Below, in pieces: positions 6,758 through 19,521 of a DNA stretch of 21,954 nucleotides (the stretch's first letter is position 1; each line of letters begins with the position of its first letter). The position numbers and the translations under genes were made by a program. Origin of the DNA: Candidatus Thorarchaeota archaeon (lineage in GTDB: Archaea > Asgardarchaeota > Thorarchaeia > Thorarchaeales > Thorarchaeaceae); assembly GCA_019057475.1 (NCBI GenBank), contig DXJO01000047.1, positions 1 through 21,954 of the forward strand. The letters are read 5' to 3'. The notes beneath the pieces are model-generated. The model worked only from the letters and a program-made list of their open reading frames with translations, was not told where the DNA came from and made no database searches.

Positions 6758-7564
6758 TTACTTCTGACACGTTTGGCAATAATTCGTTTTGAATCGATTC
6801 GCTGTGACTTCTGAGATACGTCCACCACACAACGGGCAGACTCCACCGCCTCGATTATGGACCATCATGAAGTCCCGTTTCTCAAGGGCAATCTCATCAA
6901 GGGACCGTTTTTCTAGGACCCCCTTGAATTTCATCAGTACGTTGCGCATAGCATTGTAGAGCTGTTCTACTTCTTCGTTACTCAAACTCGATTTCCTTCG
7001 GAAAGGAAGTATTCCGGCGTAAAGAAGAATCTCATCAGCGTAGGCATTGCCAATGCCCTTGACGAACTTCTGGTTCCGCAGAATGTTCTTGATCTGCCCA
7101 CGACGACGCTTCAGGTGTTGCTTGAATTCAGCCAATTTCAGTTCAGGGTCTAGGGCTGAAGGACCGCGGTTATTGAACTCTGCTACTTGCGAGTAATTGC
7201 CCCCCTTCACCAGATAGACCCTACTCATCTGCTTCCTGTCTGTATACCTCAGAGTCCGATTCTCGGAGTGCAATTGAAAGATGTCCATCTTGGATGGCCG
7301 CTTGGTTTTTTCCATCAACCAGAACCGACCAGCAAGCATCGGATTCACAACTATCTCGCACCCGTTTTCAAGAGATATCAACAAAAATTTGCCATCCGCT
7401 CGGACTGCCTCATAGACTTTGCCTGTCAATTCATCTTCGAAGTGTGTAACCTCGATGCCGTGAAGTACTAGATGATTGTGGACTACTGCCTTCTGGATGG
7501 TTTTGCCTTGCAGCAACAAATTGAGTCTGCTGGCAATCACATCCAACTCAGGCAACTCTGGCAG
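6758..7564 (-). CDS. mutM: Fpg/Nei-family DNA glycosylase/AP lyase, probable CTG start
   Basis: Starting at CTG 7564 gives canonical MPELPE. H2TH motif GIGNAYADEIL, C-terminal zinc finger CPLC...CQTCQ, and SD GAGGTGA 6 nt upstream. Confidence 0.9.
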   Translation of the reverse strand: MPELPELDVIASRLNLLLQGKTIQKAVVHNHLVLHGIEVTHFEDELTGKVYEAVRADGKFLLISLENGCEIVVNPMLAGRFWLMEKTKRPSKMDIFQLHSENRTLRYTDRKQMSRVYLVKGGNYSQVAEFNNRGPSALDPELKLAEFKQHLKRRRGQIKNILRNQKFVKGIGNAYADEILLYAGILPFRRKSSLSNEEVEQLYNAMRNVLMKFKGVLEKRSLDEIALEKRDFMMVHNRGGGVCPLCGGRISEVTANRFKTNYCQTCQK

Positions 7565-7645
7565 CTCTGTTCACCTCAGCGGCAAGATACTATGCAGGAT
7601 TACATGCAAGCAGAACTTAAGGCTGATTGTGCTGCTCTTGCCTTC

Positions 7646-8242
7646 ATGCCAGAACCTGTTGTATTTCACATTCAAAAGGGCCGTCTTGTCAAGATGCACG
7701 ATCCTGGTGCTTTTGGACGAGGCGACTGCTATCTTGTTGATGCGGGTCCAAAGATTTACCTCTGGATTGGACCAAAGTCAACTGCTGATGAAAAATTCCT
7801 AACGGCCGCATCTGCGGTTATGAAAGACACTGCACGCAAAGGTCACGCAGACATAGATCGTATTGAAGGCGGTAACGAGCCAGAGTCATTCAAGAGTCTC
7901 TTCGATGACTTCCGCCTGACCGATGAGGACACTGCAGGCATTCTCAGGAAGGTCCAGATGGAAACCCATGAACACAAATTATGGCGTGTTCACCGAGAAG
8001 GCGACGAAACATACTTTGCAGAAGTATCTAGAGAGAAGCCGTCTTTGAGAAGTGATGATGTTTTCATTTTGGACGCTTGGGATACATTCTTTGTTTGGCG
8101 CGGAAAGGAAGCCAGTTCAAGGGAGAAGTTCGATGCTACTATACTTGCGCGACGCTACGATGCAGAACGTGTAGGCGTGCAAGAGATTGAACTAATCGAG
8201 GAAGGAAGCGAACCAGATGAATTCTTGAAGTTGTTGGACTGA
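7646..8242 (+). CDS. Two-domain gelsolin-family actin regulator (Asgard 2DGel-like), 198 aa
   Basis: Two gelsolin repeats: GDCYLVD...IYLWIG..S..DEK...EGGNEPESF and SDDVFILD...FFVWRG...REK...EEGSEPDEF. Linker ILRKV. CTTAAG 24 nt before the ATG at 7646. Confidence 0.9.
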   Translation: MPEPVVFHIQKGRLVKMHDPGAFGRGDCYLVDAGPKIYLWIGPKSTADEKFLTAASAVMKDTARKGHADIDRIEGGNEPESFKSLFDDFRLTDEDTAGILRKVQMETHEHKLWRVHREGDETYFAEVSREKPSLRSDDVFILDAWDTFFVWRGKEASSREKFDATILARRYDAERVGVQEIELIEEGSEPDEFLKLLD

Positions 8243-12299: not shown

Positions 12300-13439
12300 C
12301 TATAATGTCGCTTCGTACTCGATAAGCCCGATGATTGGAACAAATCCTAGCGATTGGTAGAGTTCTAGACCGCCGCGATTGGTTTCCGGTGTACCAACCC
12401 ATGAATACTGACAACCATGTTCCAGGAACAGCTGGTTAATCTGATTGACCAAAAGGGAGGCGACACCGATCCTCCGGAAATTCGGGGATACGCCAAGTTC
12501 TCCTATTATGCCAAAAGGCGGTCGATACTTGAATTCAGGTATCCATCCTATCAGCAGACCTGCTGGTTCTCCGTCTACTACAGCAATCCTCCAGAAGTTC
12601 GCAGGAGAGTGGCCGAACTTCCCGTTTTTGATTGCTTGTTGAATCTGAAGACTTTGATCATAATCTGTGACTGTAGAGTAGAAACCATGAACAGCCCTAT
12701 CCTCGGGGGTAGACGCAAAAGCTGTTACTATGAGCTCACTGAGTTCTTCCAATGTGAAGTCATCAAGTGTCTTGACTACTATGACCTCAGGTGTGGGCTG
12801 CGGTATCGACAAACCCAGGTCTAGCAGCAGCATCACACTCATGGGTCCACTCTTCTTGAACCCAAAGCTATCGTACAGTTGGGCGTGCCATGCTATGAGC
12901 TCTGGACGGTCAAGCGGATATCTCAGCCTGCATCTTACCCTCTCGACCCCTCTGTCCTTCAGAAACGAAAAGCCGAATCTCATGAGTGCATCTGCAACAC
13001 CGCTGCCCCGCTCGAAGAGAGGCACTCCTGGTTCCCATCTCCTGATCCAGCCCGTTTTGTCATCTGACGTGATGCCCAAGACTCCCACGATTTCGTCATC
13101 ATCATCCAGCCGTGCAACTAGGAAGGTGTTCTCAGGTTTGTCGAACTCTTCCTGTATCTCTTCTAGTTCTTCATCCGAGTGATAGTCAAACGGACCACGG
13201 TCCTCAATCCAGTGGACATGACTCATGCACGCCAACCAAGCTTCCTCATAGTCTTCGAAGGACTCTGCGGGCTCCACGAGAATCTCTATTTCACCCATAT
13301 CGTTCCTACTTGGCAAGGCGGATGTATAAACAGTTGCCTTCTTACCGTTCATTGTCACCTGGACAAACTTTGACAGGGAGTCTTTGTCCTCCCAAGAGCG
13401 GCACTGGGAACGTACTCCTTGAGGTAATTCCCCTGTCAT
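12300..13439 (-). CDS. Tandem two-domain GNAT acetyltransferase
   Basis: Two acetyl-CoA motif A copies (ERGSGVA and FRRIGVA) and LYxSxGF motifs. TATA CTTATATAC upstream. Confidence 0.85.
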   Translation of the reverse strand: MTGELPQGVRSQCRSWEDKDSLSKFVQVTMNGKKATVYTSALPSRNDMGEIEILVEPAESFEDYEEAWLACMSHVHWIEDRGPFDYHSDEELEEIQEEFDKPENTFLVARLDDDDEIVGVLGITSDDKTGWIRRWEPGVPLFERGSGVADALMRFGFSFLKDRGVERVRCRLRYPLDRPELIAWHAQLYDSFGFKKSGPMSVMLLLDLGLSIPQPTPEVIVVKTLDDFTLEELSELIVTAFASTPEDRAVHGFYSTVTDYDQSLQIQQAIKNGKFGHSPANFWRIAVVDGEPAGLLIGWIPEFKYRPPFGIIGELGVSPNFRRIGVASLLVNQINQLFLEHGCQYSWVGTPETNRGGLELYQSLGFVPIIGLIEYEATL

Positions 13440-13659
13440 ATAACCTCAAGAACTAGTTTCACGACTTGAGTATATAAGACCATATTCAAAAATGTCCAGT
13501 ATTGTCCAAGTTTGGGGCAGCTGTCTGCAATCCTAGGTCCAACATATACCTAGCGCATTTTTGCCAGAAGACATAATCTTGAAATGCTGAAGCTAGTAAT
13601 TCAAGGGCTGAGCATTAAATCAGTCAAAACAAGGCTCAAGCCACCGTGACGGAGCGTCG

Positions 13660-14235
13660 TCAAGAGCCCATAATTCGCTCATGTATATAAGAGTAGGCGC
13701 CGCCTTTTTCCTCGTCAAGATGGGAATCCAAGACCTCTTTGATTTTGACGAATCCATTTTTCTCATAGAAACGATGGTTACGTGTAGCCCACTCAGGAGT
13801 GCCAAGCTCCCATCGTTTTCCAGGGAATGCTGAGAATATGTACTGCATCGCCTGGGAACCAATGCCATGATTCTGCCAGTCAGGATCCACAAAGATAGTT
13901 CCCAGGACATTGTTGCCAGGGTTCCCCACATCACTACCGAGAAACACAATGAAGGCACCCACCGGCTCTTCTCTCTCGTCAGTGGTAACTAGGATTTTGT
14001 AGAGATGACCAGGTGGATACTGACCATCGCCTTTGATTCCCCATGTCATCAAGAAACTGCCATCATCATAGCCCGGTGGACCGGCGCCATCTGGATTGCC
14101 CTTGAATCGAATGGCATCATCATCAAAGGCCTTCTTCATTGCTTTCGTAAGTTCTTGGATATCTTCCTCTGCAGCTTTAGCCACGCGCACTGTGAATGGC
14201 TTATCCTCGTCATGTTTTTCGTTCATGAATTTCAA
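13660..14235 (-). CDS. GNAT acetyltransferase
   Basis: Motifs FVDPDWQNHGIG and NHRFYEKNGF. Confidence 0.88.
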   Translation of the reverse strand: MKFMNEKHDEDKPFTVRVAKAAEEDIQELTKAMKKAFDDDAIRFKGNPDGAGPPGYDDGSFLMTWGIKGDGQYPPGHLYKILVTTDEREEPVGAFIVFLGSDVGNPGNNVLGTIFVDPDWQNHGIGSQAMQYIFSAFPGKRWELGTPEWATRNHRFYEKNGFVKIKEVLDSHLDEEKGGAYSYIHERIMGS

Positions 14236-14505
14236 TCACTCCATAAGGGGTATTCAGATAGAGAGAACTGGAACAACGCTTATTATTCCGCGGTAGCCAG
14301 TTGTTTCGTTATCCGGCTGAATCTGCACATAAACTGACTTATCCCTAACGGTTTGGTTAGGGAAAGTACGCTGCATTCCTAATCATATCCATTGGTCAGT
14401 ACAAGGAGCTATCAAGATGCCGCCTGAGAGTAGCCAATACGGCAGGATACTTGACTGCGTTCGTTGCATGACGCTGACATCACTGGAACGTAGAAACCAA
14501 GAAAT

Positions 14506-14601
14506 GAGATTCTAAGGGAGGGCCTTACAGCCCATCTTCAGAAACTAGTTGCGCTTAGATGCATCTGAAGTTGACCTCCGCTCTTGTTTCATTGGACTCC
14601 T
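14506..14601 (-). pseudogene. Decayed duplicate of the actin 3' end (last 15 codons) and its terminator hairpin
   Basis: Aligns with 16524-16616 (offset 2015 in the coding part). Reads ESNETRAEVNFRCI* versus actin [14 protein letters not shown]. 53 of 62 columns are identical across 14506-14567. Confidence 0.85.
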
Positions 14602-14711
14602 AAAATGATGGTCATGTGTGGCATCTACCAATGAACCCATGCACGACAAATGTAAAACAGCTAGGAAACTTAATAGTAATAGGCGTGCTGTTAAGTACGG
14701 GCGGGTAAACC

Positions 14712-15896
14712 TTGAGAATCTGTAGCAAGTGTGGCAGAAGCAATAGTGTGACAAGAAAGTATTGCGTGCGTTGCGGAGCTTCTCTTATTCAACCGATTAA
14801 AAAGGAAGAGCCGAAGGAGATAGCGCGCATTCCCGAGTCAGGGCAAGCTACAACCAGAGAAACAATGCCGAATGCTGGAACGCACAAGGAACCCCCAACT
14901 CCTAAGCCAGAGGAAATCGTCACAGGTAGCAAACTGGTTAAACCGAGCACGATTCAACACAACAGGATGAGGACGGCTGAACGTCATGTGAGGAAGACTG
15001 AGCTCGAGAAGGCAAAGGAGGCGTTTCATCGAGCGGATCAAGCAGGCATAGAGGAGGGCGATGGGGGAATCATTGAACCTAGAATGCTTAGGGCTAGCGA
15101 GGTGCGTGAGCTCATGGCTAGCATGGCGAATTTGCAAGATGAAACCATGACTCAAGAGCCTGAGTTGACGATCCAACCAGAATCGCCCCCTCAGAGAGCA
15201 TCAGAAACCGGATTCTCGCCTATTGTCACTCCCCAGCCCATTGAAGGGGATATAACGAGCACCGAGCATATACTTGTAGATCAGCCAGCACCCGTTTCGA
15301 AACTCCCCCCCAAAGCTGAGTCCAGAATGGAACCGCTGAGAGGTGAAGCCAAAATCTCACCGAAGCCCCCTCCCCGAGCTATGCCAGCCCTGCAAGCCAA
15401 GGTACCTATTGCGGAAGTTGCATCACCGTCAGTTGCTCCGGAACCAGTCATCGAAGCTGCAGTCAATGTGCAGACCCAAGAAGTAGGGAACAGAACTGGG
15501 TCACCAATGACAAGAATACACGACCCGGAGTATCTCAATGATGCCAAACTAGGGCCAATGCTGCTTGATCATAAGATTATCCAGAACAAACTGAAGCAAA
15601 TCGAGTCCGAGCTTGATGGTGTCCGCTTGCAGCAAGATGCGGAGGTCCAAAAGTATCACAATGCGGCTGAAACTAAGAGGATACATTATGAGAGTTTGAA
15701 AGAGCAACTCGGTCATGCAAAGCAGGAACTGGTAGATGCAGGCAAGGAATACTACAAGTCCGAGAATCGCAGGAAGAAGGAAGTTGGCGGTAGGGAGAAG
15801 GAACTCAAGAAGCTTCACAAGAGCATCAGCAAGTCAGAGGCCGCGATAGACAAACGTGTCCGTGAGCTAGACAGCCAGAAAGAGAAATCCGCTTGA
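14712..15896 (+). CDS. Zinc-ribbon protein with Pro-rich low-complexity middle and C-terminal coiled coil
   Basis: CSKC...CVRC at the N-terminus, a P/E/S-rich linker and a charged heptad C-terminus. TTG start. Confidence 0.8.
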   Translation: MRICSKCGRSNSVTRKYCVRCGASLIQPIKKEEPKEIARIPESGQATTRETMPNAGTHKEPPTPKPEEIVTGSKLVKPSTIQHNRMRTAERHVRKTELEKAKEAFHRADQAGIEEGDGGIIEPRMLRASEVRELMASMANLQDETMTQEPELTIQPESPPQRASETGFSPIVTPQPIEGDITSTEHILVDQPAPVSKLPPKAESRMEPLRGEAKISPKPPPRAMPALQAKVPIAEVASPSVAPEPVIEAAVNVQTQEVGNRTGSPMTRIHDPEYLNDAKLGPMLLDHKIIQNKLKQIESELDGVRLQQDAEVQKYHNAAETKRIHYESLKEQLGHAKQELVDAGKEYYKSENRRKKEVGGREKELKKLHKSISKSEAAIDKRVRELDSQKEKSA

Positions 15897-15977
15897 TGCG
15901 AGAAGAATGAGCATCTCCCAGCAGAAAAGCAGGAAAAGAAAGAGAATTTGAAGGTGGACTTAGAACAATATCTGATT

Positions 15978-16460
15978 CTAGATACAATCGAACTCAAGAC
16001 GGAGCATCAAGTCGTTGAAGCCCTTTTTCCGCCAGAATTCAATTGATTCCGGATTCCTCAAAGCCACTGTCACGTGAGCCTTGTGGACTTCCTGCTGTTT
16101 CAACCAGTCGAGAGCCATATGCCATAAGCGGGTCCCAATACCATGACGACGTACACTCGGCTTCACGAAAAGGCCATCAATGAAACCCATTCGGCGAGGA
16201 ACATGAATTGGTGGCCGCTCATGAACCTGCGCACTGATGAATCCAACGATGTCATCACTTGACTGAGCGACACCAACGTAGGAGTTCTCTGACTGAAGCT
16301 GTTTTGCATAGTACTCCTTTGTCGGTTGAGTGACATCCGGAGCATACTGGAAACGCGGCTCAAGCCTAGCATGAAAGCGAGCGGACTCAATCCATAACTC
16401 TACAATGGACTCGAGATCATCAATACTTCCAGATCTGAAGCTGAAACTGTTTCCTGTCAT
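15978..16460 (-). CDS. GNAT acetyltransferase
   Basis: Motifs FVKPSVRRHGIG and NPESIEFWRKKGF. Start is ATG 16460 or GTG 16469. Confidence 0.88.
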   Translation of the reverse strand: MTGNSFSFRSGSIDDLESIVELWIESARFHARLEPRFQYAPDVTQPTKEYYAKQLQSENSYVGVAQSSDDIVGFISAQVHERPPIHVPRRMGFIDGLFVKPSVRRHGIGTRLWHMALDWLKQQEVHKAHVTVALRNPESIEFWRKKGFNDLMLRLEFDCI

Positions 16461-16513
16461 AATGACCACAACAGGAGGGCTCAGAACACTCCTATATTCT
16501 TTGGTTATAGGTC

Positions 16514-16555
16514 AGAAAAAGAAGAGATTCGAAGGGGGCTTTGCAGCCCACCTTC
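16514..16555 (-). terminator. Hairpin with GNRA loop plus U-rich tract after actin
   Basis: GAAGG-T-GGGCT[GCAA]AGCCC-CCTTC followed by TCTCTTCTTTTTCT, 14 nt after the actin stop. Confidence 0.7.
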
Positions 16556-16569
16556 AGAAACTAATTGCA

Positions 16570-17709
16570 CTAGATGCATCTGTGGATGACTTCAGGGCCT
16601 GCCTCATCGAACTCCTTGCGGCTGACCCACATCTTCTGGAAAGTCTTCAGTGAAGCAAGGATGCTTCCACCAATCCAGACTGAGTATTGCCTCTCAGGAG
16701 GAGCAATGATGCGAACCTCGACGTTCTCTGGGACTAGCTCGGTGATCTCCTTGTGGAGCCTCTCCTTGAGTCCTGGGAACATGGTGGAGCCACCTGACAA
16801 CACAATGTTCGCGTACAGGTCACGTCTCAAGTCGACGTCACATGCCTTGATTGAGCCAAAGATGTGTTCGTCGAGTGGCTTCGTGTCCAAGCCAATGGCG
16901 CTCGGGTTGAAGAACAACTCGGGAGCCTGGAAGCGCTCTGCACCAATGGTGATTACATCACCGTCTGGGAGCATGTATGGCTTGTCAACGCCTGCCTTGT
17001 CTGCAACTGTCCTCTCACGTTCAGGGTCGAGGGCAACGTAGCAGAGTTTCTCCTTGATGTCTCGAACAATCTCCTTCTCTGCACCGCTGACAAAGGTGTA
17101 ACCTCTTTGTCTGAGCAATCTGCGCAGATACTCGGTGACGTCGCGGCCTGCAAGATCGATTCTCGCGATGGCATGTGAGATAGCAAAGCCCTCGTAGATT
17201 GGGACTATGTGTGTCACACCATCACCAGAGTCGATGACCAGACCAGTTGTCCGACCTGATGCGTATAGTGATAGCACTGCCTGTGTTGCGACATACACTG
17301 CGGGTACTCCGAAGTTGTCGAACATGACAGATGCCATTCGTTCTCTGTTTTCTCTGGGGTTGAATGGCGCCTCGGTAAGAAGCACTGGGTTCTCGCTGGG
17401 GTCTATCTTGAGATCGTTATAGAATGTGTAACTCCATATCTTCTCGATAGCATCCCAGTCATCGATCACACCATGCTCGATTGGGTATACCAAACGTAGA
17501 ACACCACGCAGGTTGATAGCCTCTTCACCAATGTAGTAATCGCGCGTGTAGTGGTCGACGTCTGTCATAATCGACTCGTATCGCGGATAACCAATTAGTG
17601 TGGGCCAAACACTTCGTGGCTGATCTTCGCCGGCATAACCATTCTTACTGAGACCTGTGCCATTATCAATGACAACAGGTTTCGCGCCAAGAAATTCGTC
17701 TTCAGCCAT
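16570..17709 (-). CDS. Eukaryote-like Asgard actin (Lokiactin-type), 379 aa
   Basis: Motifs [63 protein letters not shown] and [26 protein letters not shown] before ATG 17709. Confidence 0.98.
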
Positions 17710-18070: not shown

Positions 18071-18880
18071 ATGTTCTGGCCATCTGGTGACGACATCATC
18101 CGCAAAGAGATAGAAGGAGTGCGTGCTCGCAGGATAATTCTAGACCAACTTGAGGGAGGTCCACGAACCGGGAGCGAATTGAGAGAGAGCATCAGAAAGG
18201 ATATGGCTGCGCGGCAAGTCGGCTCAAAAGGCAAGAAGGTAAGCCCAAAGAAAGTCAAGGTCACGGACCCAAAGCTCTACTTCAACACACAACACCTTGA
18301 GGACGCAGGAATCATCCGTAGCTGGAGGGAGTCACAGCAGCGTGTATTCAGTCTTGAACCGAAAGCAGTACACCCCGTTAGAAGAGCACTTGGTATCTCA
18401 AAGCCCAAGGTATTCCTCACGTCGTTGGCACTGCCTGAAGACGCTCGGCTGTTGGTTGCATGGCTTTCTACAGAGGCAAGTCCTGACATCAAGCTCCTCC
18501 GGTTAGTTGTAGAACAACAGCGCTTTGCCAGAGGGGTTTCCAAGAACCTTGAGAAACACATTCCAGACAATGCACCTCGGCAGTGGGAGAACAGATGGCT
18601 TGAACTGCCTATCGAGATTGCGGGGGACAATGAAGGAGGTTTCCGAGGGAATCTCACGTCCACATACACCGAGATAGAGAAGGTAGTTCTGGAAGACATA
18701 CCAGAGGGTGACATTCTTGTGGATCTGTCTTCAGGCCCGCCTACAATCGTGCTTGCATTGAGTCTTCTGGCTATGGAGTACTCACTGCCCGCAATTCATG
18801 TGCAGAGATACGAGGGGGAGAAGACTACAATCACATCAGTCCTGCCCAGGAGGGAAGCAACACGAGTGCAAGCGCCCTAA
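18071..18880 (+). CDS. N-terminal winged-helix regulator fused to a C-terminal CARF-like Rossmann domain
   Basis: RRIILDQLEGGPRTGSEL...LYFNTQHLEDAGII is an ArsR-like wHTH. KVFLTSL and ILVDLSSGPPTIVLALSLLA resemble CARF strand 1 and the D(L/I)(S/T)GG motif. Confidence 0.65.
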   Translation: MFWPSGDDIIRKEIEGVRARRIILDQLEGGPRTGSELRESIRKDMAARQVGSKGKKVSPKKVKVTDPKLYFNTQHLEDAGIIRSWRESQQRVFSLEPKAVHPVRRALGISKPKVFLTSLALPEDARLLVAWLSTEASPDIKLLRLVVEQQRFARGVSKNLEKHIPDNAPRQWENRWLELPIEIAGDNEGGFRGNLTSTYTEIEKVVLEDIPEGDILVDLSSGPPTIVLALSLLAMEYSLPAIHVQRYEGEKTTITSVLPRREATRVQAP

Positions 18881-18930
18881 ATCTCGAACGAGTCCATATT
18901 GAGAAGAAGATAGCTTCACTGCTAACTGAA

Positions 18931-19521
18931 GTGAAGAGGGTTAAGGAGAATGTGCCCTCTCAGAATACACGTCTTCTTGGAAAGATGAAGCGTTGGGTCA
19001 AACAGTTGACCAGCATACTGTCCCTAATAGACCGGGTCAAAGATTCACTAACACCGAAACTCGAGAAAGTTCTGGAAGTGTCCCTACACAAGAACGAGCT
19101 ACTCCTAGTTGCGATGTTCCAGCCAAGCACGAAGAACCTGTTTCTTGAGATGATAGATGAGTTCCCATCCAAGCAGGAAGAACTGAAGCATCTTGTGGCT
19201 CTTAGCGAAATGGCGGAGGCACTGGCACTAGTGGGAGATGCGGCAATCTCATTGGCTGCATTGCACCACGTCTGGCAGCCGAAATCGGTTGATGTGGGCG
19301 TATTGACCCAGAAGAGATCGGACATTGTCAACAACGAACATATGGCTGAACTCTGCGACAACTGGGACCTCTATGAACATCGCATCCACTTCGACCCCCA
19401 CGCTGTGAGCAAGTCAGAGATGGAGCATGACAAGGGTACGCTGCTTGAGGCAATCTACGGAATCGTCTACATTGAACATGGGTTGGAAAAGATCAAAGAA
19501 CTGATTCGTTATCTTGTCTGA
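18931..19521 (+). CDS. Ribonuclease III catalytic-domain protein lacking a dsRBD (start 18931 or 18985)
   Basis: EALALVGDA matches the ERLEFLGD signature. RSDIVNNEHMA and GTLLEAIYG match the second acidic motif. Confidence 0.8.
   Translation: MKRVKENVPSQNTRLLGKMKRWVKQLTSILSLIDRVKDSLTPKLEKVLEVSLHKNELLLVAMFQPSTKNLFLEMIDEFPSKQEELKHLVALSEMAEALALVGDAAISLAALHHVWQPKSVDVGVLTQKRSDIVNNEHMAELCDNWDLYEHRIHFDPHAVSKSEMEHDKGTLLEAIYGIVYIEHGLEKIKELIRYLV

Follow-up and report, generated by a model that had tools for sequence, protein, structure and literature searches.

The actin gene described here is followed, across a 2-kb interval, by a decayed second copy of its own 3' end, which raises the question of how the end of a gene comes to be repeated around accessory genes. 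The stretch of DNA analysed (the window; 21,954 nt) corresponds to contig C27 in the 3.34-Mb genome of a Thorarchaeote (G000), where actin is a single-copy gene according to BLASTN against the genome. The initial annotation, made from the sequence alone, had reported the repeat and read it as an old insertion into actin or the remnant of a tandem paralog, and most of its sequence details were reproduced. Positions 14497-14601 copy the actin end at 16514-16616 with 77% identity over 110 nt (BLASTN, E 1.35e-14 against the genome), and the score of 90 was reached by 0/1000 shuffles, whose maximum was 27. The coding decay is as counted earlier (21/33 nt identical over 11 codons, then AGA TGC ATC, with TAA replacing TAG); the in-frame TAG upstream in the copy and the GNRA loops of both hairpins are present on reading the sequence, and the palindrome AGATGCATCT occurs in both copies (14557-14566 and 16572-16581). 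A domain search confirmed the GNAT (PF00583) and Zn-ribbon genes between the copies. After the stop, our alignment gives 50/56 identical positions. The features of the locus are given below; we call the displaced gene ends stumps and number their edges relative to the first nucleotide of the actin stop codon.

16570..17709, minus strand: Thorarchaeota actin gene, 379 aa, the anchor (PF00022, E 7e-132; cluster members are named Thorarchaeota actin)
16514..16616, minus strand: resident actin tail, comprising the last 15 codons, stop, spacer, hairpin and T-run
16531..16555, minus strand: terminator-like hairpin, then T-run (family-wide conservation with paired stem changes; function predicted)
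15978..16460, minus strand: cassette 1, GNAT acetyltransferase gene (PF00583), absent in G002, G003, G004, G005, L132, L134, L136 and L139
15932..15995, minus strand: stump 1, degenerate; GAGTTCGAT..TGTATCTAG forms the last codons of the GNAT gene (EFDCI*), and the hairpin 3' arm and T-run are retained
14712..15896, plus strand: cassette 2, uncharacterized Zn-ribbon / low-complexity / coiled-coil gene of family F6, near actin in many genera
14497..14601, minus strand: stump 2, the repeat flagged in the initial annotation: an old actin tail that begins 44 nt ahead of the stop and extends to the T-run
14513..14539, minus strand: hairpin of stump 2, lower stem broken
13660..14226, minus strand: GNAT gene behind stump 2, variable within the genus
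12300..13439, minus strand: double GNAT gene (F9), with which the conserved distal block of the genus begins

The order is thus actin, GNAT, stump 1, F6 Zn-ribbon gene, stump 2, GNAT, GNAT, and the 2-kb interval consists of two units, split by a third, more decayed stump between the GNAT and the Zn-ribbon gene. The GNAT end, GAG TTC GAT TGT ATC TAG, equals the actin end GAG TTC GAT ... TGC ATC TAG minus 27 nt, and GNAT homologues of other genera have endings different from that of cassette 1. The hairpin 3' arm and T-run of stump 1 (15932-15957) lead into the same spacer that is found after actin at empty sites. Two genes start divergently on either side of stump 2, and therefore no gene terminates on it. 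An assembly error across the duplicated GNAT was considered for the window and rejected, as a separate assembly, possibly from the same reads, follows the same path and reproduces the order. In the surroundings, a two-domain gelsolin gene is found 8 kb downstream of actin (7472-8242), genus-conserved winged-helix and RNase III-domain genes diverge from actin (18071-19521), and the intergenic DNA upstream of the double GNAT gene (13400-13530) is a dispersed repeat that recurs on C9, C42 and C39.

Relatives of this genome carry both states of the site, so that the empty sites and variable cargo that the insertion reading called for were found. Ahead of F6 the site is empty in G002, G003, L132, L134 and L139 and filled in G001, G004, G005, G006, L133, L136, L140 and the window, and all of them, several independent insertions included, have one common spacer before F6; therefore it is the copy further downstream that represents the old, displaced end. 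The stumps at these filled sites have left edges of -33, -41, -39, -29 and about -42. In contigs of two other samples the hairpin is joined to F6 without the GNAT, and in G021 and G024 actin adjoins the conserved distal block without cargo. Orthologues of stump 2 are present in G002 and G004; in G005 it is cut, and in G001 and L132 it has been deleted. Neither tree nor match pointed to a donor of F6: the tree was alignable for this genus only and the Atlas gave no match. For 61 family genomes 2.5 kb or more of sequence is available downstream of actin, and 26 of them have one to four stumps around variable cargo in a strict self-search, and a profile search found more stumps than this. The units mostly span 0.3-3.5 kb with 1-4 genes in either orientation, and include HepT/MNT pairs (the pair in three genera), DUF433/DUF5615 pairs, GNATs, a deaminase (in two genera), TPR proteins and beta-lactamase-fold proteins. 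Right edges fall at the T-run. Left edges of young copies range from -70 to -21, some others start at 0, and the longest actin stumps start at -63, just behind AAGAT. Within arrays the copy nearer to actin scores higher in 21/28 pairs (p 0.013; pairs not independent), a polarity that fails across genomes (rank correlation -0.03).

The genome itself holds another actin-tail copy, on contig C43, as the initial annotation had proposed looking for. C43:1-361 (L147) is a young actin stump with its edge at -49, followed by a second GNAT about 93% identical, and more than 17 kb of accessory genes lie in front of the stump at chromosomal depth. In the likely source run, depths for the window and C43 paths are 43.8 and 41.2 and only one actin was assembled, so both paths are probably present in the same cells. 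In the same run, one GNAT copy follows the window as far as 16051 and then continues into DNA that the assembly lacks.

Full or divergent second actins were also seen, and they bear on the idea that stump 2 is what remains of a deleted tandem paralog. In G063 (L042:2332-3453) a divergent second actin, 44% identical, is present, and in two Loki-type contigs (L178 and L184) the whole actin gene is duplicated, with 83-93% DNA and about 100% protein identity, the second actin lying 1 kb downstream. The G063 paralog nevertheless ends in a -63 stump, in which 19/20 final residues are identical to those of the resident actin, with a decayed third piece behind it, and second actins occur in just one of about 70 Thorarchaeota loci. 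Furthermore, the window holds no longer remnant, relatives carry up to four stumps with different edges as well as empty sites, and genes other than actin behave likewise, so that this explanation is largely rejected and we regard it as very improbable. The same pattern extends to Loki-type contigs: L178, L184, L190 and L175 carry either a full second actin allele or a small RHH-like gene pair set among three long stumps, with edges at -110 to -123 in L190, and 39/43 non-Thor loci are without actin stumps. In L127 (G038:C1:534612-535773) the actin of another Asgard family appears in two overlapping matches near its 3' end (frameshift or intron).

The displacement pattern is general in Thorarchaeota and not confined to actin. 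An acyl-CoA dehydrogenase gene (acd) of the same genome is accompanied by about 14 copies of its tail over 33 kb (G000:C26:100850-135000; L142, L143), with further copies on C51, C28, C22 and C8; most of these stumps start at -63 +/- 3, again just behind AAGAT, and the acd end has matches in 58/85 relatives, often several times. A genome-wide self-comparison of G000 gave orphan gene ends in 12 entries (10 distinct) for the 3'/downstream side, 8 for the 5'/upstream side and 4 on the wrong side, which places 18/22 on the outward side (p 0.004). An aminopeptidase gene is one more case. The mirror-image 5' stumps, clear for at least five genes, an AspRS-like gene among them, consist of promoter region and first codons.

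The changes between the copies indicate where their sequences diverged. When each copy is compared with its own resident gene, the difference is 24.8% at third codon positions against 8.5% at first and second ones (p 4e-31; kin not independent), and the excess at third positions implies that most changes arose while both were working alleles. In addition, near-identical strains show a mosaic pattern in the last 85 bases of actin: L138 and L141 share every base in the first 1000 nt of the gene, whereas 15 differences, none of which alters the protein, fall between -85 and -22. This implies crossing over both upstream of -85 and in the region of -36 to -22. This patch is carried by five loci. 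These observations weigh on the possibility that arbitrary foreign DNA, sharing no homology with the site, entered close to the hairpin, where the DNA had broken or a fork had stalled, and that the target duplicated 60-130 bp of itself. The diversity of the cargo (HepT/MNT, DUF433/DUF5615, GNATs, deaminase, beta-lactamase fold) agrees with such an event, repeat lengths do cluster near 90-140 nt, and in the first donor new genes must somehow have come to adjoin actin. A self-made copy should however begin identical to the resident and decay evenly, yet divergence at third positions is three times that at first and second ones, and the resident tails are mosaic; we hold this account to be improbable. 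The exchange has a wider meaning, since lineages trade the C-terminal coding end of a eukaryote-like actin, and a divergent actin can receive it, as in G063.

The best reading of the locus, and in our opinion a probable one, is homology-anchored insertion from relatives with target duplication. The incoming DNA would be the actin sequence of a related Thorarchaeote together with its downstream gene or genes; its actin part would pair with the very conserved recipient actin, with a crossover inside the gene, and its far end would be joined illegitimately to the recipient slightly inside the old tail, possibly at 5-8 nt of microhomology. The product would be an intact actin with the donor tail, then the cargo, the old-tail stump and the old neighbours. 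Repeated rounds would build polar arrays, recombination between tails could loop out cassettes or convert short patches, and stumps would later decay or be deleted. The variable edges, the donor alleles, the 5' mirror arrays and the many anchors fit such insertion with an illegitimate far joint, the mechanism proposed for the T6SS arrays of V. cholerae (PMC5361080). The data themselves show displacement of the old end, empty and filled sites, variable edges, replaced alleles, polarity, many anchors and no linked recombinase. We infer that RadA-type host recombination does the work, together with a route of DNA entry, microhomology joining and the loss of longer duplications. Two marks of homology-facilitated illegitimate recombination (HFIR), an anchor replaced by the donor allele and a variable illegitimate far junction, are seen here. 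For the most part, HFIR deletes target DNA instead of duplicating it. It has been found to be rare in tested bacteria (PMC5361080). These properties count against the homology-anchored reading, as do further points: microhomology of 7-8 nt was seen at only two junctions, where its direction is ambiguous; in the G000 genome no ComEC was found and DprA falls below the cut-off; MAGs lose mobile elements; the polarity fails across genomes; and the tight acd edge (-63 +/- 3) and the -63 edge of actin, both behind AAGAT, look site-specific.

Site-specificity of this kind is what would be expected if a tyrosine or serine recombinase of a virus, plasmid or ICE acted in trans, the cassettes being CIME-like islets and the stumps left-eroded attR sites. 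The geometry does resemble the accretion of ICEs, IMEs and CIMEs at gene 3' ends (PMC5704250), and direct repeats that restore the target gene are present, together with the tight acd edge. G000 has eight tyrosine-recombinase matches, two of them directly behind the 3' ends of protein genes; contig C28 starts with an integrase piece and holds acd stumps, and the accessory DNA ahead of the young C43 stump could likewise be read as part of an element. Against this, no recombinase or remnant was found inside any actin array (the C43 block lacks its far end in the assembly), PF00589, PF07508 and TIGR02249 gave none by actin in 86 genomes, and a profile of G000's own integrases gave none in the fetched Thorarchaeota actin loci. 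A fixed crossover core is lacking for actin: young stumps with 94-98% identity start at different positions, edges run from -70 to 0, and the foreign patch begins at -85, outside nearly all stumps. The 5' mirror stumps and the many unrelated anchors would each need an enzyme of their own, the TrmB-linked and ABC-linked integrases have no attR copy in the assembly, and viral contigs were rejected as carriers of the tail (one chance match only). An enzyme in trans therefore seems unlikely to us, and from the original proposal of an integrative element the insertion at the actin 3' end with a displaced old end survives, while a classical element is not supported, since no recombinase is nearby, the edge is not fixed and the anchors are many and unrelated, 5' ends included. 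The integrase gene of the window itself (1665-2975), directly behind TrmB and 13.6 kb from actin, belongs to another element; positions 1-2975 are the edge of this separate integrated element, with 11-nt tandem repeats (1-150) and 114-nt-spaced repeats (525-852), and it continues in L235.

Arrays formed by displacement are known, and the Asgard form is a variant with housekeeping anchors. The closest parallel among the systems compared, the T6SS immunity arrays of V. cholerae (PMC5361080), shares a conserved and mosaic anchor, proximal insertion, outward displacement of the old end and absence of an integrase; rhs C-terminal displacement is cited there likewise. The actin locus differs in its housekeeping anchor with an unchanged protein end, its unrelated accessory cargo, its stumps of ~100 nt, the many loci and both gene ends affected, and its archaeal host. 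Insertion with long target duplication (Furuta 2010, PMC2853133) also yields cargo that has no mobility genes and is flanked by direct repeats, which are long and variable and may overlap a gene 3' end, and our locus shows a repeat of >30 bp, an insert of <20 kb, no mobility gene and an empty site in a relative. That process concerns single restriction-modification insertions in bacteria, mostly in naturally competent species, and no archaeal case passed the screen (PMC2853133), whereas here repeated arrays stand at fixed genes and the cargo is a GNAT and a Zn-ribbon gene. ICE/IME/CIME accretion (PMC5704250) similarly yields tandem units at a gene end, bounded by copies of that end and many without a recombinase, but the actin arrays have no integrase or transfer remnant and no fixed core, and 5'-end arrays exist too. 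Integrons resemble the actin arrays in their polar build from units of 1-3 genes, in which GNATs and toxin-antitoxin pairs are frequent; every unit closes with a hairpin repeat, and the newest cassette lies next to the insertion site here as well, judging by the 21/28 pairs. They differ in that here the tail of the host gene itself serves as the repeat (coding sequence of actin together with the hairpin 3' of it, not attC), genes lie in both orientations and IntI (TIGR02249) is over the cut-off in 0/86 genomes.

Our literature search found no report of arrays of this kind for Thorarchaeota or Asgard archaea. It is a tentative, somewhat doubtful suggestion that Thorarchaeota and some other Asgard archaea possess a dedicated integrase-free capture system, which would use host enzymes to insert at gene ends with a duplication of ~120 bp and an edge about -63, build superintegron-sized arrays and trade cassettes between genera, with actin as one hub. 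The actin arrays themselves show how an Asgard lineage acquires accessory genes without carrying an integrase and keeps, at a locus found in every genome, a countable record of their order and age. The actin tails also offer a family-wide handle for junction sequencing to separate homology-guided from site-specific insertion.

Regarding the hairpin, the resident one and its T-run are conserved across the family with paired stem changes, and it is most likely actin's predicted terminator. The natural stem (GAAGG-n-GGGC-loop-GCCC-CCTTC plus T-run) is longer than first described; stump 2 keeps the loop and upper stem, as had been noted, while the lower half is broken and its folding energy is -15.8 against -19.4 kcal/mol for the resident. 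The U-G closing pair and GTAA loop of the copy also occur in resident actin ends of relatives. The palindrome AGATGCATCT is lost outside this genus and was rejected as a core site, not being conserved. The better retention of hairpin than codons had been taken as a sign of selection on the displaced copy, which our data do not support: over all copies, the departure from the resident amounts to 18% of sites in stems and 14% in codons overall, copies fold more weakly (-17.7 vs -20.5 kcal/mol), and 2/3 stump 2 orthologues are broken, the upper stem being affected in both G002 and G004, the latter of which retains the codons. The contrast in the single copy (50/56 vs 32/44) gives p 0.04 for a comparison chosen after the fact.

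Lastly, actin genes of some relatives are interrupted by 30-nt bulge-helix-bulge inserts, at codon 358/359 in L023, L024, L026, L028, L029 and L088 and at codons 10 and 95 in L161. Excision by the usual rule restores the frame, and the central helix has paired changes in G027. The commonest insert adjoins the left edge of the longest stumps; an intron that protects the site was rejected, with stumps still present in 2/6 intron-bearing genomes. ARAGORN finds only 24 tRNA genes in the 96%-complete G000, a low count that suggests many interrupted tRNAs.
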